Assembly (NCBI RefSeq): GCF_034096925.1 | Contig: NZ_JAWZSQ010000003.1 | Coordinates: 197,532-229,531 of the forward strand | Direction: 5' to 3' | Source: Patulibacter defluvii | Lineage (GTDB): Bacteria; Actinomycetota; Thermoleophilia; Solirubrobacterales; Solirubrobacteraceae | DNA: 32,000 nt | In this document: positions 630 to 13,982 of the stretch, one piece after another | Layout: every line of letters starts with the position of its first letter | Numbering within the stretch: position 1 is the first letter of the stretch | The notes under the pieces: model-generated | Told to the model about the DNA's origin: nothing | What the model saw: only the letters and a program-made list of their open reading frames with translations | Database searches by the model: none | Program-made: the position numbers and the translations under genes

Positions 630-2663
630 GTGTATCGTCGCGCCGTGGTCACGGATCTCCGCCCTCTCTGGGAGCCGGTGCAGGTCGGCCCCGTCACGCT
701 CCGCAACCGGATCGCGGCCGGCCCCTCGACGCTGCTCTACGCCGAGGACAACGTCCTCTCCGAGCGTCATGTGGCCTTCCACGCCGAGCGCGCCCGCGGT
801 GGCGCGGGCCTGATCCTCACCGAGGAGCACGGCGCCTACCGGACCGCGCTCGGGGCCTTCCCCGACGCCTGCACCGCCTGGGATCCGCGCGCGGTCCCGG
901 CGCTCGCGCGGCTGGCCGAGGCGGTCCACGAGCACGGCGCCGCGGCCTTCGTGCAGCTCTACGGTCCCGGGATCGCGGACACCGGCACGGTCGTCGGCGA
1001 CGCCTGGCAGCCGGTCGTCGGCCCCTCGCGCGTGCCCTCGCCCGGCCCGGGGGCGGTGCCCTACGCGCTCGGCGACGACGACATCGCCGAGATCGTCGCC
1101 GGCCACGCCACCTCGGCCCGCAACGTGGCCGAGGCCGGTCTCGACGGGGTCGAGGTCCACGCCGCCCATGGCTGGCTCGCGGCCCAGTTCCTGAGCCCGC
1201 TGTTCAACCGCCGCAGCGACCGCTACGGCGGCTCCGCGCGCCGCCGCTGCCGGTTCGTGCTCGAGCTCCTGGAGGCGATCCGCGCCGCCGCCGACGGCCT
1301 CGCGGTCGGGGTCCAGCTGTCGGTCGACGAGTACGTCGGCGCGGCCGGGATCACGCCCGAGGAGTGCCTGATCCAGGTCGACGAGCTGGTCGGCTCCGGG
1401 CTCGTCGACTACGTCAACGTCTCGACCGGCAGCCCGTTCTCGATCCCGCGCACGATCGCGGCGATGGAGGCGCCGGCGGCGGTCCTGGCCGATCACGGCC
1501 GCGCGATCCGCGAGGCCGTCGCGGGCCGGGCCGCGGTCCTGCTCGTCGACACGATCCGGACCGTCGACGACGCCGCCGCGGTGGTCGCCGCGGGCGCCGC
1601 CGACGTCGCGGTGATGACGCGCGCCCACTTCGCCGACCCGTTCCTGGTCCGCAAGGCGATGGCCGGGCGCACTGACGAGACGGTGCCCTGCATCGGCGAG
1701 AACGAGTGCATGGTGCGGGCCTTCGGGGCGCGGCCGGTGGCGTGCCTGATGAACCCGGCGATGGGCCGCGAGGCGCGCTGGGGCGAGCAGGCGACCGCCG
1801 CCGCACCGACCCCGGTCCCGCGGCGGATCGCGATCGCGGGCGCCGGTCCGGCCGGCCTGCGGGCGGCGGCGACGCTGGCCGACCGCGGGCACGAGGTGGT
1901 GGTCTGGGAGCGCGGGCCGCTCGGCGGTCACCTCGATCCGCTCTCGCGCCTGCCCGGCCGCCGCCGCTGGCGGTTGGCGATCGACGCCTTCGCGCGCGCC
2001 GCCGAGCGGGCCGGCGTCGAGCTGCGCCAGGGCGAGGCCGCGACCGCCGCCGGCCTCGCCGCGCACGCGCCCGACCTGGTGCTGTGCGCGACCGGCGCGA
2101 GCTGGGACCGCAGCGGCCTGTGGGCGGGGACGCCGGCCGCCGCGCCGCTGCCCGGGATCGATGCCCCGCACGTGCTCGACGTCGCCGAGGCGCTGCGACG
2201 GGCGCTCGACGACCCGACCGCGCTCGGCGCGCGGGTGGCGATCGTCGACGCGACCGGCGAGTACCTGCCGCTCGGCCTGGCCGACCTGCTCTCGGCCGCC
2301 GGCGTCCGCGTCGAGCTCGTCACCCCACAGGCCGAGGTCGGCCGCTGGGTCCGGCAGGCGCAGGACGGGACCGAGGTCTTCGCGCGGCTGGCCGAGCGCG
2401 GCGTCGCCGTGACGGCCGGTCGCGCCCTGGCCGCGGTCGCCGGCGACGCGGTCGCGCTGGAGGAGACCTGGTCGGGCCGGCGGGCGACGCTGGAGGGCGT
2501 CGACGCGGTCGTTCTGTCGCTGCTGCGGACGCCCGACGACCGGCTGCTGCGCGAGCTGGAGACCGCCGGCGTCGCCGCCCGCCCGCTCGGCGACGCGCTG
2601 GCGCCCCGGCGCACGATCGAGGTCGTCTACGAGGCCGAGGCGGTCGCCCGCGAGCTGGTCTAG
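630..2663 (+). CDS. Two-domain NADH:flavin oxidoreductase (Old Yellow Enzyme / 2,4-dienoyl-CoA reductase-like)
   Basis: 677-aa ORF. The N-terminal region is an OYE-type FMN barrel (VTLRNRIAAGP, HAAHGWLAAQFLSP). It is followed by a Cys linker PCIGENECMVRAFGARPVACLMNP and a Rossmann motif IAIAGAGPAGL. The start could be GTG 630 or the in-frame GTG 645, which lies 6 nt after TATCGT (633-638). Confidence 0.85.
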   Translation: MYRRAVVTDLRPLWEPVQVGPVTLRNRIAAGPSTLLYAEDNVLSERHVAFHAERARGGAGLILTEEHGAYRTALGAFPDACTAWDPRAVPALARLAEAVHEHGAAAFVQLYGPGIADTGTVVGDAWQPVVGPSRVPSPGPGAVPYALGDDDIAEIVAGHATSARNVAEAGLDGVEVHAAHGWLAAQFLSPLFNRRSDRYGGSARRRCRFVLELLEAIRAAADGLAVGVQLSVDEYVGAAGITPEECLIQVDELVGSGLVDYVNVSTGSPFSIPRTIAAMEAPAAVLADHGRAIREAVAGRAAVLLVDTIRTVDDAAAVVAAGAADVAVMTRAHFADPFLVRKAMAGRTDETVPCIGENECMVRAFGARPVACLMNPAMGREARWGEQATAAAPTPVPRRIAIAGAGPAGLRAAATLADRGHEVVVWERGPLGGHLDPLSRLPGRRRWRLAIDAFARAAERAGVELRQGEAATAAGLAAHAPDLVLCATGASWDRSGLWAGTPAAAPLPGIDAPHVLDVAEALRRALDDPTALGARVAIVDATGEYLPLGLADLLSAAGVRVELVTPQAEVGRWVRQAQDGTEVFARLAERGVAVTAGRALAAVAGDAVALEETWSGRRATLEGVDAVVLSLLRTPDDRLLRELETAGVAARPLGDALAPRRTIEVVYEAEAVARELV

Positions 2664-2716: not shown

Positions 2717-5659
2717 CTAGCGGCGGGTGGTCTTCGCCTTGCCCGTCGCCGACTTGCGCTTGGCGGGCTGCGCCTTGCGGACCGCGCACGGGGTCCCGAT
2801 CCGCACGCTGGCCGCCCGCGGCGCGGCGCCGTTCTGCCCGGCCAGCGCCACGCGACCGGTCAGCTTGCGGCCGCAGAGCGCCCGGGTGGTGGCGATGATC
2901 CCGTGGCGGCCGCCGTTGATGTTGAGCGTGAACGACGTGATCGGCTGGTCGGGGATCGCCGCGAACGTCGTCACCAGCTGCTTGCGGCGGATCGCGGTCG
3001 TCGAGCGGAGGTCGATCGCCACCTCGCCGCGCAGCGCCACGTAGAGCGTCGGCAGGGTCTTGATCTCGCGCCCCGTCCTCGGATCGCGGCGGACGCCCTT
3101 GACGAAGTAGACCGGGCCGCTGAGCGGGCGGTCGAGGATCGACGTCTCGGCGGTCGCGGAGCCGACGACCGACGACGCCGGGCAGCTGCCCTTCAGCGCG
3201 TCCGCCGCCTCGCAGAGGCCCCGGGCGTTGGCCGCCGCCAGCGAGAGCGACGTCGGCAGCGCGACCGTCGCCGACCGCAGGCCGGCCTCGCCCTCGGCCT
3301 GGGTCACGGTCGCCGTCACGCGCGGGTGCTTGTGCTTGCCCATCTGGGTCTTGTTGGCGACCGCCAGCCGCACCTTCGGCGCGAACCGCAGCTGCTGGCA
3401 GCCGGTGAACGACAGCGGCGCGGCCGGGCTGGCGGTGGCGCCGCCGGCCGAGGTCAGCGTCGCCGCGACCGCGCCGGTCGAGCACGAGGTCGGGTTGCGC
3501 AGGAAGCCGGGGCGGTCGATCCGCAGCGTCAGCTCGCGCAGCCGCAGCAGGATCCCCTCGTGGACCTGCGGCAGCGGATCGCTGTCGACCGTCACCTGGG
3601 CGCTGGCCGGGTCGATTCGCAGTGCCTGCCGGACGACGACGTGCCCCAGGTCGTAGGGGCCGGCGAGCGCGCGGACGATCGCCACCATCCCGAACGGCGC
3701 ACCCTTGTAGCCGCCGGTCAGGTACAGGCTGCCGTTCAGCGCGTAGGGCGCGGCGCCCGGCCCGGCCTTGGTCGCGACGCTGCCGATCCGCGAGGCGGCG
3801 GGGCAGCTGGCGGCGGCCACGTCCTCCTCGGCGCAGCGCTGGACGCCGCGCAGCTTGGCCGTCATGCCGAGCGGCAGGCGCGCGCCGACGCCGCCCAGGT
3901 ACTGGTCGCCGTCGGGCCGCGAGAGCGTCACCGTCAGCGGGGCGAAGGCGCCCGACTGGGCGGAGCCGGCGGCGATCGCGAAGCCGGGCGAGAAGCCGAG
4001 CGGCCCGCAGCCGGTGACGTTCAGCGGGCTGCCGACCGCGACCGGCGCCGTGCCCGAGTAGGGCGTGAAGGTGGTGGTGGCCGTCGCGGCGCCGCAGCTC
4101 TGCGGCGAGGCGACGATCGCCTTCGCGCCGCCGTCGAAGTCGAGCGTCATCCGCGAGAACGGCAGCTGCGGGTTGTCGGCGAAGCTGGTGGTCAGCTGGC
4201 CGCTGGTGGGATCGGCGTCGACGCGGCCCTTGAGCCGGATCGCGATCCCGCGGCCCTCGGCGGTCACGAACAGCCGGTAGCGCTGCCCGGCCTGCGGCTG
4301 ACCGAGGTAGATCGCGCCCTCCAGCGGCTCGTCGAGAAGCGGCGACTGGATCGCGACCCGGCCGACCTTCGACGCCGGCGGGCAGCTGATCGGCTGGTCG
4401 GTGCCCTGGGCCAGGTCGCGGTCGCTGCACGCCTCCAGCCCGTCGGCGGCCGAGGGGCTGATCGACATCCCGGGCGGCAGGGTCAGCTTGACGTCGCGGA
4501 CGTGGGCGGCGGCGAGGCTGCCGCCGTCCTTGGTCTGCGGGACCGACAGCGAGACCGAGAGCGGGGTCGGCGCGTCGGCCTGCAGCGCGCTCGGACCGAA
4601 GCTCGTGGTCGGCGCGAACGGCAGCCGCTCGCAGCCGTCGCTGCCGACCGGGGTCGTGTCGCTCGAGCGCGAGCTCTTGCCCTTGGTCGAGGTGATCTCG
4701 ATCCGGGTCGTCTGGGGCCCGCTGCAGCTGGTCGGGTTGGTCAGGAAGGCGGTGGTCTTGTCGTCCACCTGGAGCCCGCCGCGCGAGTCGGGATCGGTCT
4801 GCAGGTCGGGGCCGGCGAGGGTCAGCAGCGCCATCCCGGCGAGCCCCCGCTCGGGGTCGTGGACCGGGTCGCCGGGGACGCCCCAGAGGGTCAGCTTCGA
4901 CCAGACCAGCAGCGGGTTCCGCGGCAGGTTCCTGATCTCGACGTAGGTGCCGTGGTCGGAGGGCCGGACGCCGCCGACCAGGTCGATCGGGTCGAGGTTG
5001 CCGTCCATCATGTAGGAGAGCGTCACCTGGCGCGGGTTGATCGCGAACCGCGCGACCTGGCCCTTGGCGCGGGTCATGTTGTAGACCGGCGCGACCGCCT
5101 CGACGGTGTTGCGGCCGGTGAAGATCGTGCCGCGGACCCGCATCCGCTGGATCCCGACCTGCGACGCGACGGGGCAGCCGCTGCCGGGCGGGCCCTTGCG
5201 CACGGCCGCGTAGTCCGGGTCGCCGGAGTCGCCGATGATCGAGAGGTTGTCGAGCTGCTCGTCGGTGCAGGTCGGGATCGCGGTCGGATCGGCGACCAGC
5301 CCGGCCGGCAGGTCGACGCGGATGTCGCGCGTGTAGCCGTAGGGCTCGCCGGGGTAGGTGTGGTTGCCGTTGGTGACCTCCTGGCTGGCCAGCCCGAACT
5401 CGGCGCTCGCGAAGGCCGGGTGGCCGCCGGCCTGGGTGAAGAGCGAGGCGCGGTCGGCGTTGCTCCCGTCGCTGGTCTTGAAGACGCCGGCCGAGAAGCT
5501 GGTCAGCCCGAAGTCGGTGTCCGGCAGCGCCGGTGGGGCCGGCATCGAGTCGGCGGCCATCGCCGGCCCGGCGACGAGCAGCGAGGCGAGGCCGAGCGCG
5601 GCGGCGAGGCCACGGGACGCGCGCCCCGTCCGCGCACGCCGATTGGAGGTGAGACCCAC
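2717..5659 (-). CDS. Large secreted Cys-rich protein of unknown function (980 aa) with internal ~200-aa module repeats and a Lys/Arg-rich C-terminal tail
   Basis: GTG start. The signal peptide is MGLTSNRRARTGRASRGLAAALGLASLLVAGPAMAADS. G/C at codon position 3 is strong throughout. The motif set NPTSC ... GC..L.F.P ... LP.G ... C...SCP..S.[VI]G ... PL.G.[IV]Y repeats three times. The protein ends in AQPAKRKSATGKAKTTRR. I recognise no family. Confidence 0.8.
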   Translation of the reverse strand: MGLTSNRRARTGRASRGLAAALGLASLLVAGPAMAADSMPAPPALPDTDFGLTSFSAGVFKTSDGSNADRASLFTQAGGHPAFASAEFGLASQEVTNGNHTYPGEPYGYTRDIRVDLPAGLVADPTAIPTCTDEQLDNLSIIGDSGDPDYAAVRKGPPGSGCPVASQVGIQRMRVRGTIFTGRNTVEAVAPVYNMTRAKGQVARFAINPRQVTLSYMMDGNLDPIDLVGGVRPSDHGTYVEIRNLPRNPLLVWSKLTLWGVPGDPVHDPERGLAGMALLTLAGPDLQTDPDSRGGLQVDDKTTAFLTNPTSCSGPQTTRIEITSTKGKSSRSSDTTPVGSDGCERLPFAPTTSFGPSALQADAPTPLSVSLSVPQTKDGGSLAAAHVRDVKLTLPPGMSISPSAADGLEACSDRDLAQGTDQPISCPPASKVGRVAIQSPLLDEPLEGAIYLGQPQAGQRYRLFVTAEGRGIAIRLKGRVDADPTSGQLTTSFADNPQLPFSRMTLDFDGGAKAIVASPQSCGAATATTTFTPYSGTAPVAVGSPLNVTGCGPLGFSPGFAIAAGSAQSGAFAPLTVTLSRPDGDQYLGGVGARLPLGMTAKLRGVQRCAEEDVAAASCPAASRIGSVATKAGPGAAPYALNGSLYLTGGYKGAPFGMVAIVRALAGPYDLGHVVVRQALRIDPASAQVTVDSDPLPQVHEGILLRLRELTLRIDRPGFLRNPTSCSTGAVAATLTSAGGATASPAAPLSFTGCQQLRFAPKVRLAVANKTQMGKHKHPRVTATVTQAEGEAGLRSATVALPTSLSLAAANARGLCEAADALKGSCPASSVVGSATAETSILDRPLSGPVYFVKGVRRDPRTGREIKTLPTLYVALRGEVAIDLRSTTAIRRKQLVTTFAAIPDQPITSFTLNINGGRHGIIATTRALCGRKLTGRVALAGQNGAAPRAASVRIGTPCAVRKAQPAKRKSATGKAKTTRR

Positions 5660-6037
5660 GGAGGCGTTCCCTTCGTCCTGTTGCAGAAGCCGGGCAGGCT
5701 AGATGAAGGACCGCTTTCGTGTCCGAGAGAAACGCCATTGTCCGACCCGCGTCGAACCGCGTACGTCGTCCGCGTTGACCGTGGCGAGTTCCCCTGCGGA
5801 ACGGGGGTCGAAACGTTTTCGCCAGTGTCCGCCGTGCGCCGCCGTGCGTTGGGCCGTCCGCGCGACGGTCACCGCGGGGGCGCTTCGGAAACGTCGTCGG
5901 ACATCCGTCCAGAGGCTGGGGCGGGCCAGCCCGCCGATCCCGAGCACGTGCTCGATGCCGGCGGTCCTGCCAGGGTGGAGGGGCGGCCGGCCTGGCGTAG
6001 GGTCGGTCCCGTCCGTCGCCTCACCCGGGAGCTGCTC

Positions 6038-7084
6038 ATGACCGACCTCTGGACCGCCGTCAAGGACCTGCCGATCACGATCGAGTCGTCGTCGTTCGAG
6101 GCGTTGGTGCCGAGCGGCCCCCTGGGGATGGAGGACTACACGACGACCCAGCTGCGGCTGCGGGGTCGTGGTGAGGAGGGGATCGGTGAGCAGGTCGGGA
6201 TGCCGGGTACGCAGGAGAGCCTGCGTGCCAGTGATCATTCGCTGACGGGGGAGTGGTCGACGCTGGCGGGGTTCCTGGACCATCTCGACACGATCGAGAT
6301 GTGGCCGGAGGCGCCGGAGTACGAGTTGGAGCGGAACTGGCGGCGCTGGACGTTCGAGTCGGCCGCGCTCGACCTCGCGTTGCGGCAGGCGGGGACGAGC
6401 CTGCCGGAGGTGCTGGGCCGGACGCCGCGGCCGTTGACCTTCGTCAACTCGTTCGGTCTCGGCGATCCGCCCGAGATCGACAAGGTCGCCAAGCGGCGGG
6501 CGGCGCAGCCGACGGTCGGCTTCAAGCTCGACGTCGCGCCCTCGTGGACGCAGGAGATCATGGACCGCGTGGCCGCCGTCGAGGGCGTCGCCACGATCGA
6601 CTTCAAGGGCCAGTACGGGATCGAGGTCGAGGACGAGGCGGCGCTGCTGGCGATGTACGAGCGGACGCTGGCCACCTTCACCGAGGCGGTCTTCGAGGAC
6701 CCGCACGACGACCCGGCGATCCTCGAGCTGCTGGCGCCGTTCGCCGACCGGGTCTCCTACGACGCGCCGATCACCACCGTCGAGTCGATCGCCGCCACCG
6801 CGATCGAGCCCCGGATCGTCAACGTCAAGCCCTGCCGCGTCGGGCGGCTGGCGGAGCTCAGCCGGCTCTACGCCCACTGCGGGGCGACCGGCATCCGGAT
6901 GTACAACGGCGGCATGGGCGAGCTGGGCGTCGGTCGCGGCCAGGCCCAGCTGCTGGCCGCGCTCTTTCACCCCGACGCACCGAACGACATCGCACCCTCG
7001 GACTACAACCTCGAGCAGCCCCCGCCCGGCCTCCCGCCGAGCCCGCTCGATCCGGCGCCCGACCGCGGCTTCCGACGCCGCTGA
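6038..7084 (+). CDS. Enolase-superfamily-like (MR/MLE-type barrel) protein, function unknown
   Basis: This is the 348-aa tail of the 1792-aa track ORF, and only this part reads like protein. Barrel-strand-like motifs are GFKLDV, IDFKGQY, VFEDP, VSYDAP and VNVKPCRVGRL. GGGAG lies 6 nt upstream of ATG 6038. Confidence 0.5.
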   Translation: MTDLWTAVKDLPITIESSSFEALVPSGPLGMEDYTTTQLRLRGRGEEGIGEQVGMPGTQESLRASDHSLTGEWSTLAGFLDHLDTIEMWPEAPEYELERNWRRWTFESAALDLALRQAGTSLPEVLGRTPRPLTFVNSFGLGDPPEIDKVAKRRAAQPTVGFKLDVAPSWTQEIMDRVAAVEGVATIDFKGQYGIEVEDEAALLAMYERTLATFTEAVFEDPHDDPAILELLAPFADRVSYDAPITTVESIAATAIEPRIVNVKPCRVGRLAELSRLYAHCGATGIRMYNGGMGELGVGRGQAQLLAALFHPDAPNDIAPSDYNLEQPPPGLPPSPLDPAPDRGFRRR

Positions 7085-7087
7085 GGG

Positions 7088-7450
7088 CTACTCCCCGAGC
7101 ATCGGCCGCGGATCGAAGGTGACCCGGACGGCCGTGATCAGGCCGTCCTCGACGTGGGTCCAGTTGGCGACCTGCATCGGCGGCTTGCCGGCGATCGTCA
7201 GCGCCGACCAGGTGACGACGTCGCGGTCGTCGGCCAGCCGCAGCAGCACGTCGTTGGCGGTGGTGGCGGCGAACATGCCGGCCAGTCCTCGCAGGAACTC
7301 GTCGGGGCCGCGGGTCGCGCCGAGGACGCCGTCGAAGGTGACGTCGGGAGCGAGCAGCGGGCGCAGCGGCTCGGGGTCGCCGGCCGCCCAGCAGGCGAAG
7401 TAGCGCTCGGCGATCGCGCGCGGGTCGGTCGGGCGGTCGGTGGACGTCAT
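7088..7450 (-). CDS. SnoaL-like / NTF2-fold small protein
   Basis: The internal ATG at codon 126 of track ORF 7088..7825 gives 120 aa: MTSTDRPTDPRAIAERYFACWAAGDPEPLRPLLAPDVTFDG.... The YFxCWxxGD...L..LLAPDV..D pattern is typical of SnoaL/ketosteroid-isomerase-like proteins. The upstream 125 codons are Arg/Ser-rich junk. Confidence 0.6.
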   Translation of the reverse strand: MTSTDRPTDPRAIAERYFACWAAGDPEPLRPLLAPDVTFDGVLGATRGPDEFLRGLAGMFAATTANDVLLRLADDRDVVTWSALTIAGKPPMQVANWTHVEDGLITAVRVTFDPRPMLGE

Positions 7451-7520
7451 GGGTCGATGTTCGAGCGCCCGGTTCCAGAAGTCCAATACCTGGTTCGGAT
7501 CGAATATAGAATTCTCAGTT
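7451..7520. promoter_or_regulatory. Divergent promoter region between the SnoaL-like gene and the LysR gene
   Basis: It is one of the most AT-rich segments of the window (GAATATAGAATTCTCAGTT). TAGAAT (7507-7512) fits TANNNT and lies 8 nt before ATG 7521. A short inverted repeat TTCGgatCGAA lies at about 7493-7503. No binding site is proven. Confidence 0.3.
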
Positions 7521-8393
7521 ATGGAACTGCAGCAGCTGCGGTACCTCGCCGAGGTCCGGCGGCGGGGCTCGTTCACCGCCGCCGCCGAGGCGCTGCACGT
7601 CAGCCAGCCGGGGGTCTCGGCCCAGGTCGCCAAGCTCGAGCGCGAGCTGGGCGTGCGGCTGTTCGACCGCGGCGCGCGGGTGGCGACGCTGACGCCCGAG
7701 GGCCAGGCGCTGCTGCCGCACGCGACGGCCGCGCTCGACGCGGTCGGGCGGATCCGGACGGTCGCCGACGACCTCGCCGGCGTCACCCGCGGCCAGGTCC
7801 GGATCGGGACCGTGATCGGCTGCACGATCCCGGGCTACCTGCGCGCGTTCGCCGGCTTCCGCAAGGCCCATCCCGGCGTCGCGGTGACGGCGAGCGAGGG
7901 CAACTCCGACGACCTGATCGCCGCTCTCGCCGCCGGCGATCTCGACGTCGCCCTGGTCGCGCACGCGGTCCCGCTGCCGGCCGACTTCGACGTCGTCACC
8001 GTCGTCGACGAGCCGCTCGCCGCCGCCGTGCCGCGGACGCACCCGTGGGCCGGGCGGATCGCGGTGCCCCCCGCCGCCCTGGCCGAGCAGGACGTCCTGA
8101 CCCTGCCGCCCGGAACCGGCGTCCGCGCCGCGCTGGCGACCACCTGCGCCGCCGCCGGCGTCGACCTCGTCCCGGCGGTCCAGGTCCACTCGCCCGAGGC
8201 GGCCCTGGCCCTGGCCGCCGAGGGCGCTGGCGTCGCGGTGCTCTCGCCGTCGATGATCGCCGCCCCGCTGGTCGCCGTCGCGATCGAGGGGGCCGCGCGG
8301 ACCGCGCTCTCGCTGGCCACCCGCGCCGAGCCCGGTGCCGCCGCGCGGGCGTTCGCGGCGGCGCTGCGGGGCGGGTTGACGGCTGGCCGGTAG
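7521..8393 (+). CDS. LysR-family transcriptional regulator
   Basis: MELQQLRYLAEVRRRGSFTAAAEALHVSQPGVSAQVAKLERELGVRLFDR is a canonical LysR winged-HTH. A substrate-binding domain follows. The gene is divergent from a small target-type gene. Confidence 0.9.
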   Translation: MELQQLRYLAEVRRRGSFTAAAEALHVSQPGVSAQVAKLERELGVRLFDRGARVATLTPEGQALLPHATAALDAVGRIRTVADDLAGVTRGQVRIGTVIGCTIPGYLRAFAGFRKAHPGVAVTASEGNSDDLIAALAAGDLDVALVAHAVPLPADFDVVTVVDEPLAAAVPRTHPWAGRIAVPPAALAEQDVLTLPPGTGVRAALATTCAAAGVDLVPAVQVHSPEAALALAAEGAGVAVLSPSMIAAPLVAVAIEGAARTALSLATRAEPGAAARAFAAALRGGLTAGR

Positions 8394-9820: not shown

Positions 9821-9842
9821 TCGCGAGCACCGGCCCAGCACC

Positions 9843-9908
9843 TATCGCCCGCGTATCGGGAACCGCATACGCGCCGGCAGCAGGCCGCGGTCTTGACTGG
9901 CCGCATGA
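9843..9908 (+). promoter_or_regulatory. van promoter/operator module, copy A (includes the vanH start codon)
   Basis: TATCGCCcgcGTATCGggAACCGCaTACGcGCcGGC-N14-TTGACTGGcCGCATGA. By hand alignment, 48 of 66 positions match copy B at 13917-13982, with identical spacing to the ATG. The module contains TATCG twice, 11 bp apart, and an inverted repeat GCGTAT-N10-ATACGC. Confidence 0.6.
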
Positions 9909-10942
9909 TCCGCAGCGATCCGGCCCGAACCGCGGCACGCCCCCGACCGCCGGCGCCCTGGGCCGCGCCGGCCACCGCCGCGACCCGGATCACGGTCTAC
10001 GGGTGCGAGCAGGACGAGGCCGCGCTCTTCCGGGCCCTGGCGCCCGGCTTCGACGTCGACGCGACCATCACCGCGGCGCCCGTCTCGGTGGCCAACGTCG
10101 CGCTGGCGGCGGGGAACCGCTGCGTCAGCGTCGGGCACAAGGCCGAGGTCACGGCGGCGACGCTGCGCGCGCTGGCCGACGTGGGCGTGACCTACCTCTC
10201 CACACGGAGCGTCGGCTGCGACCACATCGATGCGGAATGCGCGCGGGACGTCGGCATCAGCGTCGGAACCGTCGCCTATTCGCCCGACAGCGTCGCGGAC
10301 TACACGCTGATGCTGATGCTGATGGCCGTCCGGCACGCGAAGGCGATCGTCCGCCGGGCCGACGTCCACGACTACCGCCTGCACGACCAGCGCGGTCGCG
10401 AGCTGCGCGACCTGACCGTCGGCGTGATCGGCACCGGTCGCATCGGCAGCGCGGTGATCGACCGGCTGCGGGGCTTCGGCTGCCGGGTCCTGGCCCACGA
10501 CCGCCGTCCGGGCGCCGCCGTCGACCACGTGCCGCTCGACGAGCTGCTGCGGCGCAGCGACGTCGTCACCCTCCACACGCCCCTGACCACCGAGACCCAC
10601 CACCTGCTCGACCAGGCCCGGATCGCGCGGATGAAGCCGGGCGCCGTCGTCGTCAACACCGGACGCGGCGCGCTCGTCGACAGCGCGGCGCTGGTCGCGG
10701 CGCTGGAGAGCGGCCGGCTGGGCGGCGCCGCGCTCGACGTCGTGGAGGGCGAGCAGGGGATCTTCTACGCCGACCGCCGCGACCGGCCGATCGAACCCGG
10801 CCCGCTGCGGCGGCTGCAGGAGCTGCCGAACGTGCTCGTCAGCCCGCACACCGCCTACTACACCGACCACGCGCTGCGCGACATGGTCGAGCACACGATC
10901 GCCAACTGCCTGGCGTTCGCCGGGGTGATCGAGCATGCGTAG
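9905..10942 (+). CDS. vanH: D-lactate dehydrogenase (pyruvate reductase), VanH
   Basis: ITVYGCEQDEAALF, VAYSPDSVADYTLMLMLMAVR, VGVIGTGRIGSAVIDRLRGFGC, GGAALDVVEGE and SPHTAYYTDHALRDMV read almost colinearly with enterococcal VanH as I remember it. ATG 9905 is preferred over the track's TTG 9893 because that TTG belongs to the conserved TTGACTGG DNA block. There is no other in-frame start before ITVYGC. Confidence 0.9.
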   Translation: MIRSDPARTAARPRPPAPWAAPATAATRITVYGCEQDEAALFRALAPGFDVDATITAAPVSVANVALAAGNRCVSVGHKAEVTAATLRALADVGVTYLSTRSVGCDHIDAECARDVGISVGTVAYSPDSVADYTLMLMLMAVRHAKAIVRRADVHDYRLHDQRGRELRDLTVGVIGTGRIGSAVIDRLRGFGCRVLAHDRRPGAAVDHVPLDELLRRSDVVTLHTPLTTETHHLLDQARIARMKPGAVVVNTGRGALVDSAALVAALESGRLGGAALDVVEGEQGIFYADRRDRPIEPGPLRRLQELPNVLVSPHTAYYTDHALRDMVEHTIANCLAFAGVIEHA

Positions 10943-11981
10943 GTCGAGGCTCGCGGTCGTCTTCGGCGGCAGTGGCGAGGAGCACCCGATCTCCGTCAAG
11001 TCCGCGCGCGAGGTCGCCAAGCACCTCGACCCCGACAAGTACGAGACGGTCTTCGTCGGGATCACCCGCGCCGGGGCCTGGCGGCTCTGCGACGGTCCCG
11101 ACGGCGACTGGGAGCGGCGCAGCACCCGCGCCGCCGTCCTCTCCCCGGACCGCAGCCGCCCCGGGCTGCTGGTGCTGGACGGCGATCGCCACGAGACCGT
11201 CCCCCTCGACCTGGTGCTGCCGGTGCTGCACGGCAAGTTCGGCGAGGACGGCGCGATCCAGGGGCTGCTGGAGCTGTCGGGCATCCCCTACGCCGGCTGC
11301 GACGTGCCCAGCTCCGCGCTCTGCATCGACAAGGCCCTGGCCTACGTCGTGGCGGGGAGCGCCGGAATCGCGACGCCGCGCTTCTGGACCGTCGCGCCCG
11401 GTGAGGAGATCGACGCGGAGCGGTTGCGCTTCCCGGTCTTCGTCAAGCCGGCGCGCTCGGGCTCGTCGTTCGGCGTCACCAAGGTCTCCGCTCCCGGCGA
11501 GCTGGAGGACGCGGTCCGCGACGCGCGCCAGTACGACGCCAAGCTCGTGATCGAGGAGGCGGTCGTCGGCAACGAGGTCGGCTGCGCGATCCACGGCAAC
11601 GGCGCCGACCTCTTCGCCGGCGAGGTCGACCAGATCGCGCTCTCCGGCGGCTTCTTCCGGATCCACCAGGAGCAGGCGCCCGAGCAGGGCTCCGACAACG
11701 CGACGGTCAACGTCCCGGCCGACATCTCCGCCGAGGCCCGATCGCGGGTGCAGGAGACGGCCAAGGCGATCTACCGCGCCCTCGGCTGCCGCGGGCTCGC
11801 GCGGGTCGACATGTTCCTGACCGCGGACGGGACGGTCGTGCTCAACGAGGTCAACACCTTCCCCGGGATGACCTCGTACAGCCGCTACCCGCGGATGATG
11901 GCCGCGGCCGGGCTCTCCTTCGCCGAGGTCCTCGACCGGATCGTGGCGTCGACGCTGGAGGGCCACGACGGTGACCGCTGA
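10935..11981 (+). CDS. vanA: D-alanine--D-lactate ligase (VanA/VanB type)
   Basis: LAVVFGGSGEEHPISVKSA is typical of the Ddl family. The C-terminal block FFRIHQEQAPEQGSDNATVNVPADISAEARSRVQETAKAIYRALGCRGLARVDMFL...LNEVNTFPGMTSYSRYPRMMAAAG closely follows the VanA sequence (..FRIHQE..EKGSENA..), not housekeeping Ddl. It overlaps vanH by 8 nt. Confidence 0.92.
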   Translation: MRRSRLAVVFGGSGEEHPISVKSAREVAKHLDPDKYETVFVGITRAGAWRLCDGPDGDWERRSTRAAVLSPDRSRPGLLVLDGDRHETVPLDLVLPVLHGKFGEDGAIQGLLELSGIPYAGCDVPSSALCIDKALAYVVAGSAGIATPRFWTVAPGEEIDAERLRFPVFVKPARSGSSFGVTKVSAPGELEDAVRDARQYDAKLVIEEAVVGNEVGCAIHGNGADLFAGEVDQIALSGGFFRIHQEQAPEQGSDNATVNVPADISAEARSRVQETAKAIYRALGCRGLARVDMFLTADGTVVLNEVNTFPGMTSYSRYPRMMAAAGLSFAEVLDRIVASTLEGHDGDR

Positions 11982-13916: not shown

Positions 13917-13982
13917 TATCGCCGACGTATCGCAAACCGCGTACGTGCTGGCGACACCGCTCCCCGTTGACTGGTCGCATGA
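13917..13982 (+). promoter_or_regulatory. van promoter/operator module, copy B (includes the start codon of the PhyH-like gene)
   Basis: TATCGCCgacGTATCGcaAACCGCgTACGtGCtGGC-N14-TTGACTGGtCGCATGA. It has the same block order and the same 62-nt distance from TATCGCC to the ATG as copy A. It begins 11 nt after the murF stop. Confidence 0.6.

Follow-up and report, generated by a model that had tools for sequence, protein, structure and literature searches.

A four-module protein of Patulibacter defluvii with a putative signal peptide and a basic tail, from a large unannotated family

Introduction

What kind of protein is encoded at positions 2717-5659, on the minus strand, of a 32,000-nt stretch of the Patulibacter defluvii genome is the question addressed here. 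That whole stretch is called the window below, and all positions are counted from its first letter. An earlier reading of the letters alone (the original prediction) had described the 980-amino-acid (aa) product as a secreted protein of repeated cysteine-paired modules, with no family that could be named. Solirubrobacterales, the order of P. defluvii, are reportedly among the commoner actinobacterial lineages in soil, and to our knowledge almost nothing is known about their cell surface. Here, we report that the protein, as read from its sequence, consists of a putative signal peptide, a mature N-terminus of ~40 residues, four complete modules of ~205 residues, and a basic tail, with nothing left over. 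The module family is new, the kind of protein a known one.

Results

The frame at exactly 2717-5659 is clearly a real gene. It opens with a GTG start codon, upstream of which lies a Shine-Dalgarno-like GAAGGGA, and closes with a stop codon at 2717-2719 (minus strand). The window has a G+C content of 72-77%, and because the frame reaches 0.98 at third codon positions (GC3) versus 0.68 and 0.58 at positions 1 and 2, it was identified as the coding frame among overlapping open frames.

The module was counted three times in the original prediction, with a fragment of a fourth copy at the N-terminus; the repeat itself held up under profile comparison, and the count was revised to four complete modules. 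Slices of a 60-sequence family alignment were compared pairwise with hhalign, and all module pairs matched (E = 1e-5 to 6e-32). Profile comparison alone reveals the repeat, as self-BLASTP found none within the 980-aa protein. Boundaries are cleanest when every module is taken to finish at the second Cys of a C-x28-31-C pair (the "GC" landmark); in this register the second, third, and fourth modules (R2, R3, and R4) align end to end (R2 versus R3, E = 6e-19; R2 versus R4, 2e-20). Delimited by hhalign, all on the minus strand, the modules are R1 (residues 78-343; positions 4631-5428), R2 (residues 344-551; 4007-4630), R3 (residues 552-754; 3398-4006), and R4 (residues 755-958; 2786-3397), the last of which ends at the final Cys of the protein. 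A 207-position module hidden Markov model (HMM), which also matches R2, R3, and R4 individually, tiles the 980-aa protein 4 times and independent relatives 6, 12, and 22 times. R1 is the most divergent module and is enlarged by insertions, including a WGVPG..HD loop; it spans all of R2 (E = 7.5e-10) and R3 (E = 1.5e-12) in hhalign, and the "QAGGHP" stretch, assigned in the original prediction to a separate N-terminal region, matches the beginning of later modules. Homologues are on average 40% identical to R1 and 50-53% identical to R2-R4. Mean identity is lowest (36%) in the mature N-terminus (residues 37-77; positions 5429-5551, minus strand), which runs up to the conserved QAGGHP motif, where A77, G78, and P81 are invariant or nearly so.

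The 16 cysteines fall at 131/162 and 312/343 in R1, 411/426 and 522/551 in R2, 609/619 and 726/754 in R3, and 816/826 and 929/958 in R4. All 16 were kept in each of the 53 four-module homologues compared (40-70% identity). Across 1,376 modules from 272 proteins, 1,346 carry all four cysteines, and the sole pattern of two-Cys substitution is the joint loss of the third and the fourth (8 cases), which fits Cys1-Cys2 and Cys3-Cys4 pairing. Given the spacing and this joint loss, each module probably holds two disulfides paired in that way. The Cys-paired modules and disulfide-stabilized extracellular architecture proposed earlier are supported by the invariant Cys set, together with a confident AlphaFold model and a varying number of modules in relatives. 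Every motif that had been quoted was recovered at a definite position: NPTSC at residues 308 and 722, SPQSC at 518, GCERLPFAP at 342, GCGPLGFSP at 550, GCQQLRFAP at 753, the three C...CP.AS.VG units at 410, 608, and 815, the N-terminal copy of that unit at 130-169, and the basic tail at 963-980.

The protein was modeled with AlphaFold2 from the 60-sequence alignment (mean predicted local distance difference test [pLDDT], 89.5; predicted template-modeling score [pTM], 0.79) as almost wholly beta strand, with low confidence limited to the signal peptide and the tail. Foldseek with the full model against the PDB returned multidomain immunoglobulin (Ig)-like arrays at a template-modeling (TM) score of at most 0.17 (complement C3/C5, integrin alpha legs, mastigoneme, bacterial alpha-2-macroglobulin, and a Corynebacterium diphtheriae anchored protein), and against a viral set (BFVD) it returned DUF11, FN3, and tail-protein arrays at a TM score of at most 0.14. 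A 301-residue slice (1.5 modules; pLDDT, 80.8) had no PDB match at E<=1e-3; its best weak matches were TTHA1873 (TM score, 0.51 on the target), C3c MG domains, an integrin calf domain, and the Sgo0707 adhesin. As modeled, the module is a generic kind of beta-sandwich and not a recognizable member of a solved family.

Sequence searches gave a similar picture. PDB sequences searched by phmmer and by profile (hmmsearch) yielded nothing meaningful, PHROGs had no match to the 980-aa protein, and neither Pfam nor NCBIfam matched above cutoff in eight diverse relatives (including ~1,400-aa forms) or two giant proteins. The sole NCBIfam match of the 980-aa protein, to NF041740 choice-of-anchor T (choice_anch_T), was rejected (12.5 bits, E = 0.06, over 65 residues, versus a curated cutoff of 70 bits); the eight relatives have no match to this model. 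The family therefore still cannot be named, as had been stated: a match to a characterized HMM or structure family was sought in Pfam, NCBIfam, PHROGs, the PDB, and Foldseek, and none was obtained.

Residues 1-36 (positions 5552-5659, minus strand) read as a Sec signal peptide, with the GTG start, an Arg-rich n-region, an h-region at 16-33, and an A-M-A site before Ala37, and the pLDDT is below 50 throughout. Export of the protein is thus predicted. A Tat route was rejected (no match to the NCBIfam Tat-signal model; the h-region begins 10 residues past the RR), as was a lipoprotein (the lipobox Cys is absent). The only hydrophobic stretch of the protein is at residues 16-36 and sortase-type motifs are absent, in agreement with the earlier claim of a signal peptide with neither an LPXTG motif nor a transmembrane anchor. 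The final 50 residues of the protein, its five paralogues, and five relatives contain none of the nine sortase motifs used by Monzon and Bateman (2022; PMC9210967). The C-terminal sorting signal of sortase-anchored MSCRAMM or pilin type is absent from the 980-aa protein, SLH domains were found neither in it (Pfam) nor in the whole genome, and no LPXTG, SLH, or membrane anchor was seen in the family members examined.

At the other end, a basic tail (residues 959-980, AVRKAQPAKRKSATGKAKTTRR; positions 2720-2785, minus strand) starts immediately past the final Cys. It has a charge of approximately +9 and no acidic residue and is predicted to be disordered, with the pLDDT falling to ~50 at the C-terminus. 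All six paralogues of the genome end in K/R-rich tails. Across the family alignment, the final 20 positions contain 6 K/R (median) versus ~2 expected from the body (~10% K/R), and acidic residues are almost absent there. In a crude genome-wide screen, polybasic ends were found in 13 of 779 ORFs (open reading frames) with a signal-peptide-like start versus 16 of 2,827 others; as an enrichment this is suggestive, slight when counted per family, and not proof. The positives include two families unrelated to the 980-aa protein, namely, Cys-free array proteins and an RTX-repeat protein. As the original prediction proposed, the tail may attach the protein to the cell envelope.

The Cys-free array is a six-gene tandem array of secreted paralogues of ~580-670 aa (L018:2526-16060, which is C12:11525-25059 of the P. 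defluvii genome, plus strand; and L019), with a seventh copy on contig C1. These proteins are unrelated to the module family and have no Pfam match; the last ~50 aa of each form a Lys/Arg-rich tail (for example, ...KVKKVAVKKAAKKG).

The module family is large. A word-indexed search returned more than 1,153 clusters at 90% identity, in which every name given by the source was "hypothetical protein"; the named sources were Patulibacter, Solirubrobacteraceae, Thermoleophilaceae, and one metagenome-assembled genome labeled Acidobacteriota, and source-named family members also include Baekduia. An exhaustive profile search of 1.84 billion representatives (50% identity) gave 9,958 proteins at E<=1e-3 and 3,741 at E<=1e-30, the longest of 7,161 aa. 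Of 81 genomes in the taxonomic family to which the window belongs, 31 contain the module family, in tandem arrays and with as many as 17 matches in one genome. Three further families of the same order also have it, and it was not found in the 123 genomes sampled from five other families of the class. The P. minatonensis genome searched has a single copy (P0032). Among the genomes sampled, it was found only in the window's own order. These family and class counts come from a genome search with a profile at those two levels (a first phylum-wide genome pass, in which two candidates were scored per genome, was undersensitive). The P. defluvii genome holds six full-length paralogues (35-52% identity), all with signal-peptide-like N-termini and basic C-termini. 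Surface proteins typically show this combination of expanded paralogues, tandem arrays, and patchy occurrence.

Relatives vary in length and in what is attached to the modules. Across 272 family proteins, the module count is 2-32, with four modules in 220. Two giant relatives were seen, of 4,816 aa with 22 modules (L015:2727-17177, minus strand) and of 2,667 aa with 12 modules (L016:509-8512, minus strand). The giants alternate two module subtypes, A and B, so that a module is ~50% identical (up to 80%) to the next but one and ~25% identical to its neighbors, a pattern that indicates that two-module units have recently multiplied in tandem. N-terminal heads occur in some relatives and consist of NHL beta-propeller repeats in two (one of them a Baekduia protein annotated as "NHL repeat-containing protein") and Ig domains in two others.

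Three of the six P. defluvii paralogues each lie directly downstream of a gene for a ~700-aa protein (L026:4527-6836, minus strand; L026:9903-12002, minus strand; L027:723-3509, plus strand). The PD40 beta-propeller repeat was matched by two of these three proteins, to which the third is homologous. The ~700-aa propeller proteins and the adjoining four-module paralogues share a basic C-terminal domain of ~95 aa, which could be a portable targeting domain; it also ends a Baekduia fusion of an NHL propeller with four modules (P0199) and another NHL-headed relative. The same domain terminates two more ORFs of the genome (C22 and C7). The 980-aa protein itself has no head, no partner gene, and a short tail only. 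Upstream of two relatives lie genes for 240-aa and 250-aa proteins, which are not homologous.

The 980-aa gene appears to stand alone. Its convergent neighbor (~630-2663, plus strand) encodes a 2,4-dienoyl-CoA-reductase-like flavoprotein (Oxidored_FMN and Pyr_redox_2 matches), and its divergent neighbor, across a 378-nt gap, is an enolase-like gene (6038-7084). Consensus scans around the 980-aa gene found no sigma-70-like promoter and no intrinsic terminator.

Farther along the window, genes for a SnoaL-like small protein (7088-7834, minus strand) and a LysR-family regulator (7404-8393, plus strand), both recognized from Pfam matches, are overlapping open frames on opposite strands. At 9821-11981 lies a vanH/vanA-like pair, in which a gene for a D-2-hydroxyacid dehydrogenase precedes one of the D-Ala-D-Ala-ligase family. 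An exact 12-mer, AACCGCGTACGT, occurs at 5755-5766 and 13935-13946 and has no other exact copy in the 5.3-Mb genome. The first copy is in the gap upstream of both the 980-aa gene and the enolase-like gene, oriented as the plus-strand genes, and the second is just ahead of a PhyH-like gene of the van island. This van-like 12-mer was considered as an element of the module family and not linked to it; no copy lies near or upstream of the other paralogues.

Discussion

We think it somewhat probable that the 980-aa protein is a cell-associated, fibrillar-adhesin-like stalk or adhesin held by its basic C-terminus; this function, including any adhesive role, is a prediction. The protein would be exported by Sec and its signal peptide removed. 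The mature N-terminus of ~40 residues would lead into the four all-beta modules, which would fold as consecutive beta-sandwiches. Two disulfides probably lock each module, one short-range (C-x10-31-C) around a small helical loop and one (C-x28-31-C) closing it. The 22-residue tail, with its charge of about +9, could hold the protein noncovalently on anionic envelope polymers, and R1, as the most variable module, would lie at the far end and supply any binding specificity. Since the module is multiplied 2 to 32 times or capped by beta-propeller or Ig heads in relatives, it may behave as a length-setting stalk unit. A broader proposal would make the four-Cys module of ~205 residues an undescribed stalk domain of the main surface fiber system of Solirubrobacterales, with a new noncovalent sorting element (the polybasic tail or the ~95-aa basic domain) that would hold both these proteins and unrelated secreted families of the same organisms on the cell, in the role of LPXTG or SLH elsewhere among Gram-positive bacteria; this we regard as speculative and rather doubtful.

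Several observations weigh against a cell-attached stalk. The 980-aa protein has no known anchor, with neither a second hydrophobic segment nor an LPXTG-type motif, and the one sortase encoded in the genome is not used by the module family. No known adhesive domain is present, the Pfam search of the protein having given no match. Six-module forms (~1,400 aa) in the alignment lack a basic tail, and counted per family (~6 families among the 779 ORFs with a signal-peptide-like start versus 16 of the 2,827 others) basic tails are barely enriched. With only 19-28% identity among the modules of the protein, the gene is not expected to vary rapidly in length. The gene neighborhood is not conserved and gives no pathway hint, with relatives in unrelated contexts, and literature searches (Patulibacter and Solirubrobacterales surface proteins; TTHA1873) returned no description of the module family.

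Some of these points would suit a protein that is freely released, as an extracellular matrix or binding protein whose tail binds extracellular DNA, polyanionic polysaccharides, or mineral or soil surfaces. Neither a covalent nor a membrane anchor is present, the mature protein as a whole is basic (isoelectric point, 9.3), and the six-module relatives do without any basic tail. However, the tail sits exactly at the C-terminus and recurs on unrelated secreted families, and the larger basic C-terminal domain is common to different protein types; both look more like targeting or retention elements, and relatives that combine a head with a stalk suit cell-attached display. Free release seems unlikely to us. 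Being large, secreted, all-beta, and without an anchor motif, the protein could also be imagined as a subunit of a surface layer, sheath, or other self-assembling lattice; the S-layer protein SbsB is among the weak Foldseek matches, and the pTM of 0.79 suggests a defined arrangement between domains. Lattice-forming proteins usually come from one dominant gene and have a fixed size, whereas here the genome has six diverged paralogues and no SLH domains, relatives have as many as 17 matches, proteins of the family contain anywhere from 2 to 32 modules, and just 31 of the 81 genomes in the same taxonomic family were found to have a member. We consider a lattice improbable.

The Foldseek top matches (complement C3/C5, bacterial alpha-2-macroglobulins, and phage tail proteins) would, taken by name, point to a protease trap of the alpha-2-macroglobulin or complement type, an enzyme, or a phage-derived tail or receptor-binding protein. 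At TM scores of at most 0.17, however, they are matches to generic Ig-like domain arrays, and those to alpha-2-macroglobulin-like and complement-like proteins do not exceed 0.09. The 16 cysteines include no thioester CGEQ, no A2M Pfam match was found, no conserved set of catalytic residues is evident, and a phage origin finds no PHROG match and no phage genes seen around the paralogues. Any of these identities is very improbable indeed.

The cell-associated stalk that we favor is best compared with fibrillar adhesins. The defining features of that class are great length, a rod-like stretch of repeats, an adhesive part, and an anchor (Monzon and Bateman 2022, PMC9210967). The protein has the length and the rod-like repeated stalk region (980 aa, four tandem modules, an all-beta model). 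It has no Pfam adhesive domain (R1 is the most divergent module, and NHL or Ig heads occur in some relatives), and in place of a known anchor it has a polybasic tail only. Because the known adhesive domain and the known anchor are lacking, the protein is likened to a fibrillar adhesin and not filed as a member of the class. Like the fibrillar adhesins of Firmicutes and Actinobacteria (PMC9210967), it would be a large secreted protein with a stalk of tandem beta-sandwiches, it has relatives with an N-terminal NHL or Ig head, and it belongs to a fast-evolving, paralogue-rich family. Unlike them, it is built from a module that matches no known stalk domain, has twice the size of an Ig-like domain, and carries two invariant, probably Cys1-Cys2 and Cys3-Cys4, disulfides, and in place of a recognized anchor it has only a short polybasic tail, where some paralogues have the basic domain of ~95 aa.

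Periscope proteins have highly identical tandem repeats, which lead to variation in gene length between strains (Whelan et al. 2021, PMC8201768). As in SasG, Aap, Sgo0707 SHIRT, and Rib, the number of stalk repeats in the module family varies between relatives (2-32), and the two-module expansion of the giants, in which some modules are 79-80% identical, is of the same kind. The four modules of the 980-aa protein lie far below such identity, at 19-28%, and recombinational length switching is therefore not expected in it; it also differs in not being sortase anchored. The legs of integrin alpha chains (thigh, calf-1, and calf-2) and the MG arrays of complement and alpha-2-macroglobulin are likewise chains of disulfide-containing beta-sandwiches that form a semirigid extracellular leg. 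The likeness is one of fold only, with no sequence relationship, no thioester, and no beta-propeller in the 980-aa protein.

The pilins SpaA of C. diphtheriae and FimA of Actinomyces contain disulfides, depend on the oxidoreductase MdbA, and are polymerized and anchored by sortase through pilin and LPXTG motifs. They share with the 980-aa protein, as we read it, exported actinobacterial Ig-like domains in which disulfides form after Sec export, but pilin and LPXTG motifs are absent from it. For the tail, a parallel may be drawn with mycobacterial HBHA, a coiled-coil protein with no signal peptide and a Lys-rich C-terminal tail, and with other polybasic envelope-binding tails: by analogy, a short, disordered Lys/Arg-rich C-terminus with no hydrophobic segment could bind polyanions. 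HBHA itself has no sequence relationship to the 980-aa protein.

For the single gene the result is more modest, a well-supported structural surface protein predicted from its sequence. The main importance lies in a family that is large and wholly unannotated and in a possible basic C-terminal retention element. Despite close to 10,000 clusters at 50% identity, the family has no Pfam or NCBIfam model and no solved relative. With the module defined, thousands of "hypothetical proteins" would be annotated together, and the catalogues of fibrillar adhesins would gain a new stalk domain. If the basic C-terminal elements do act as a retention signal, they would represent a new mode of protein display in Gram-positive bacteria.

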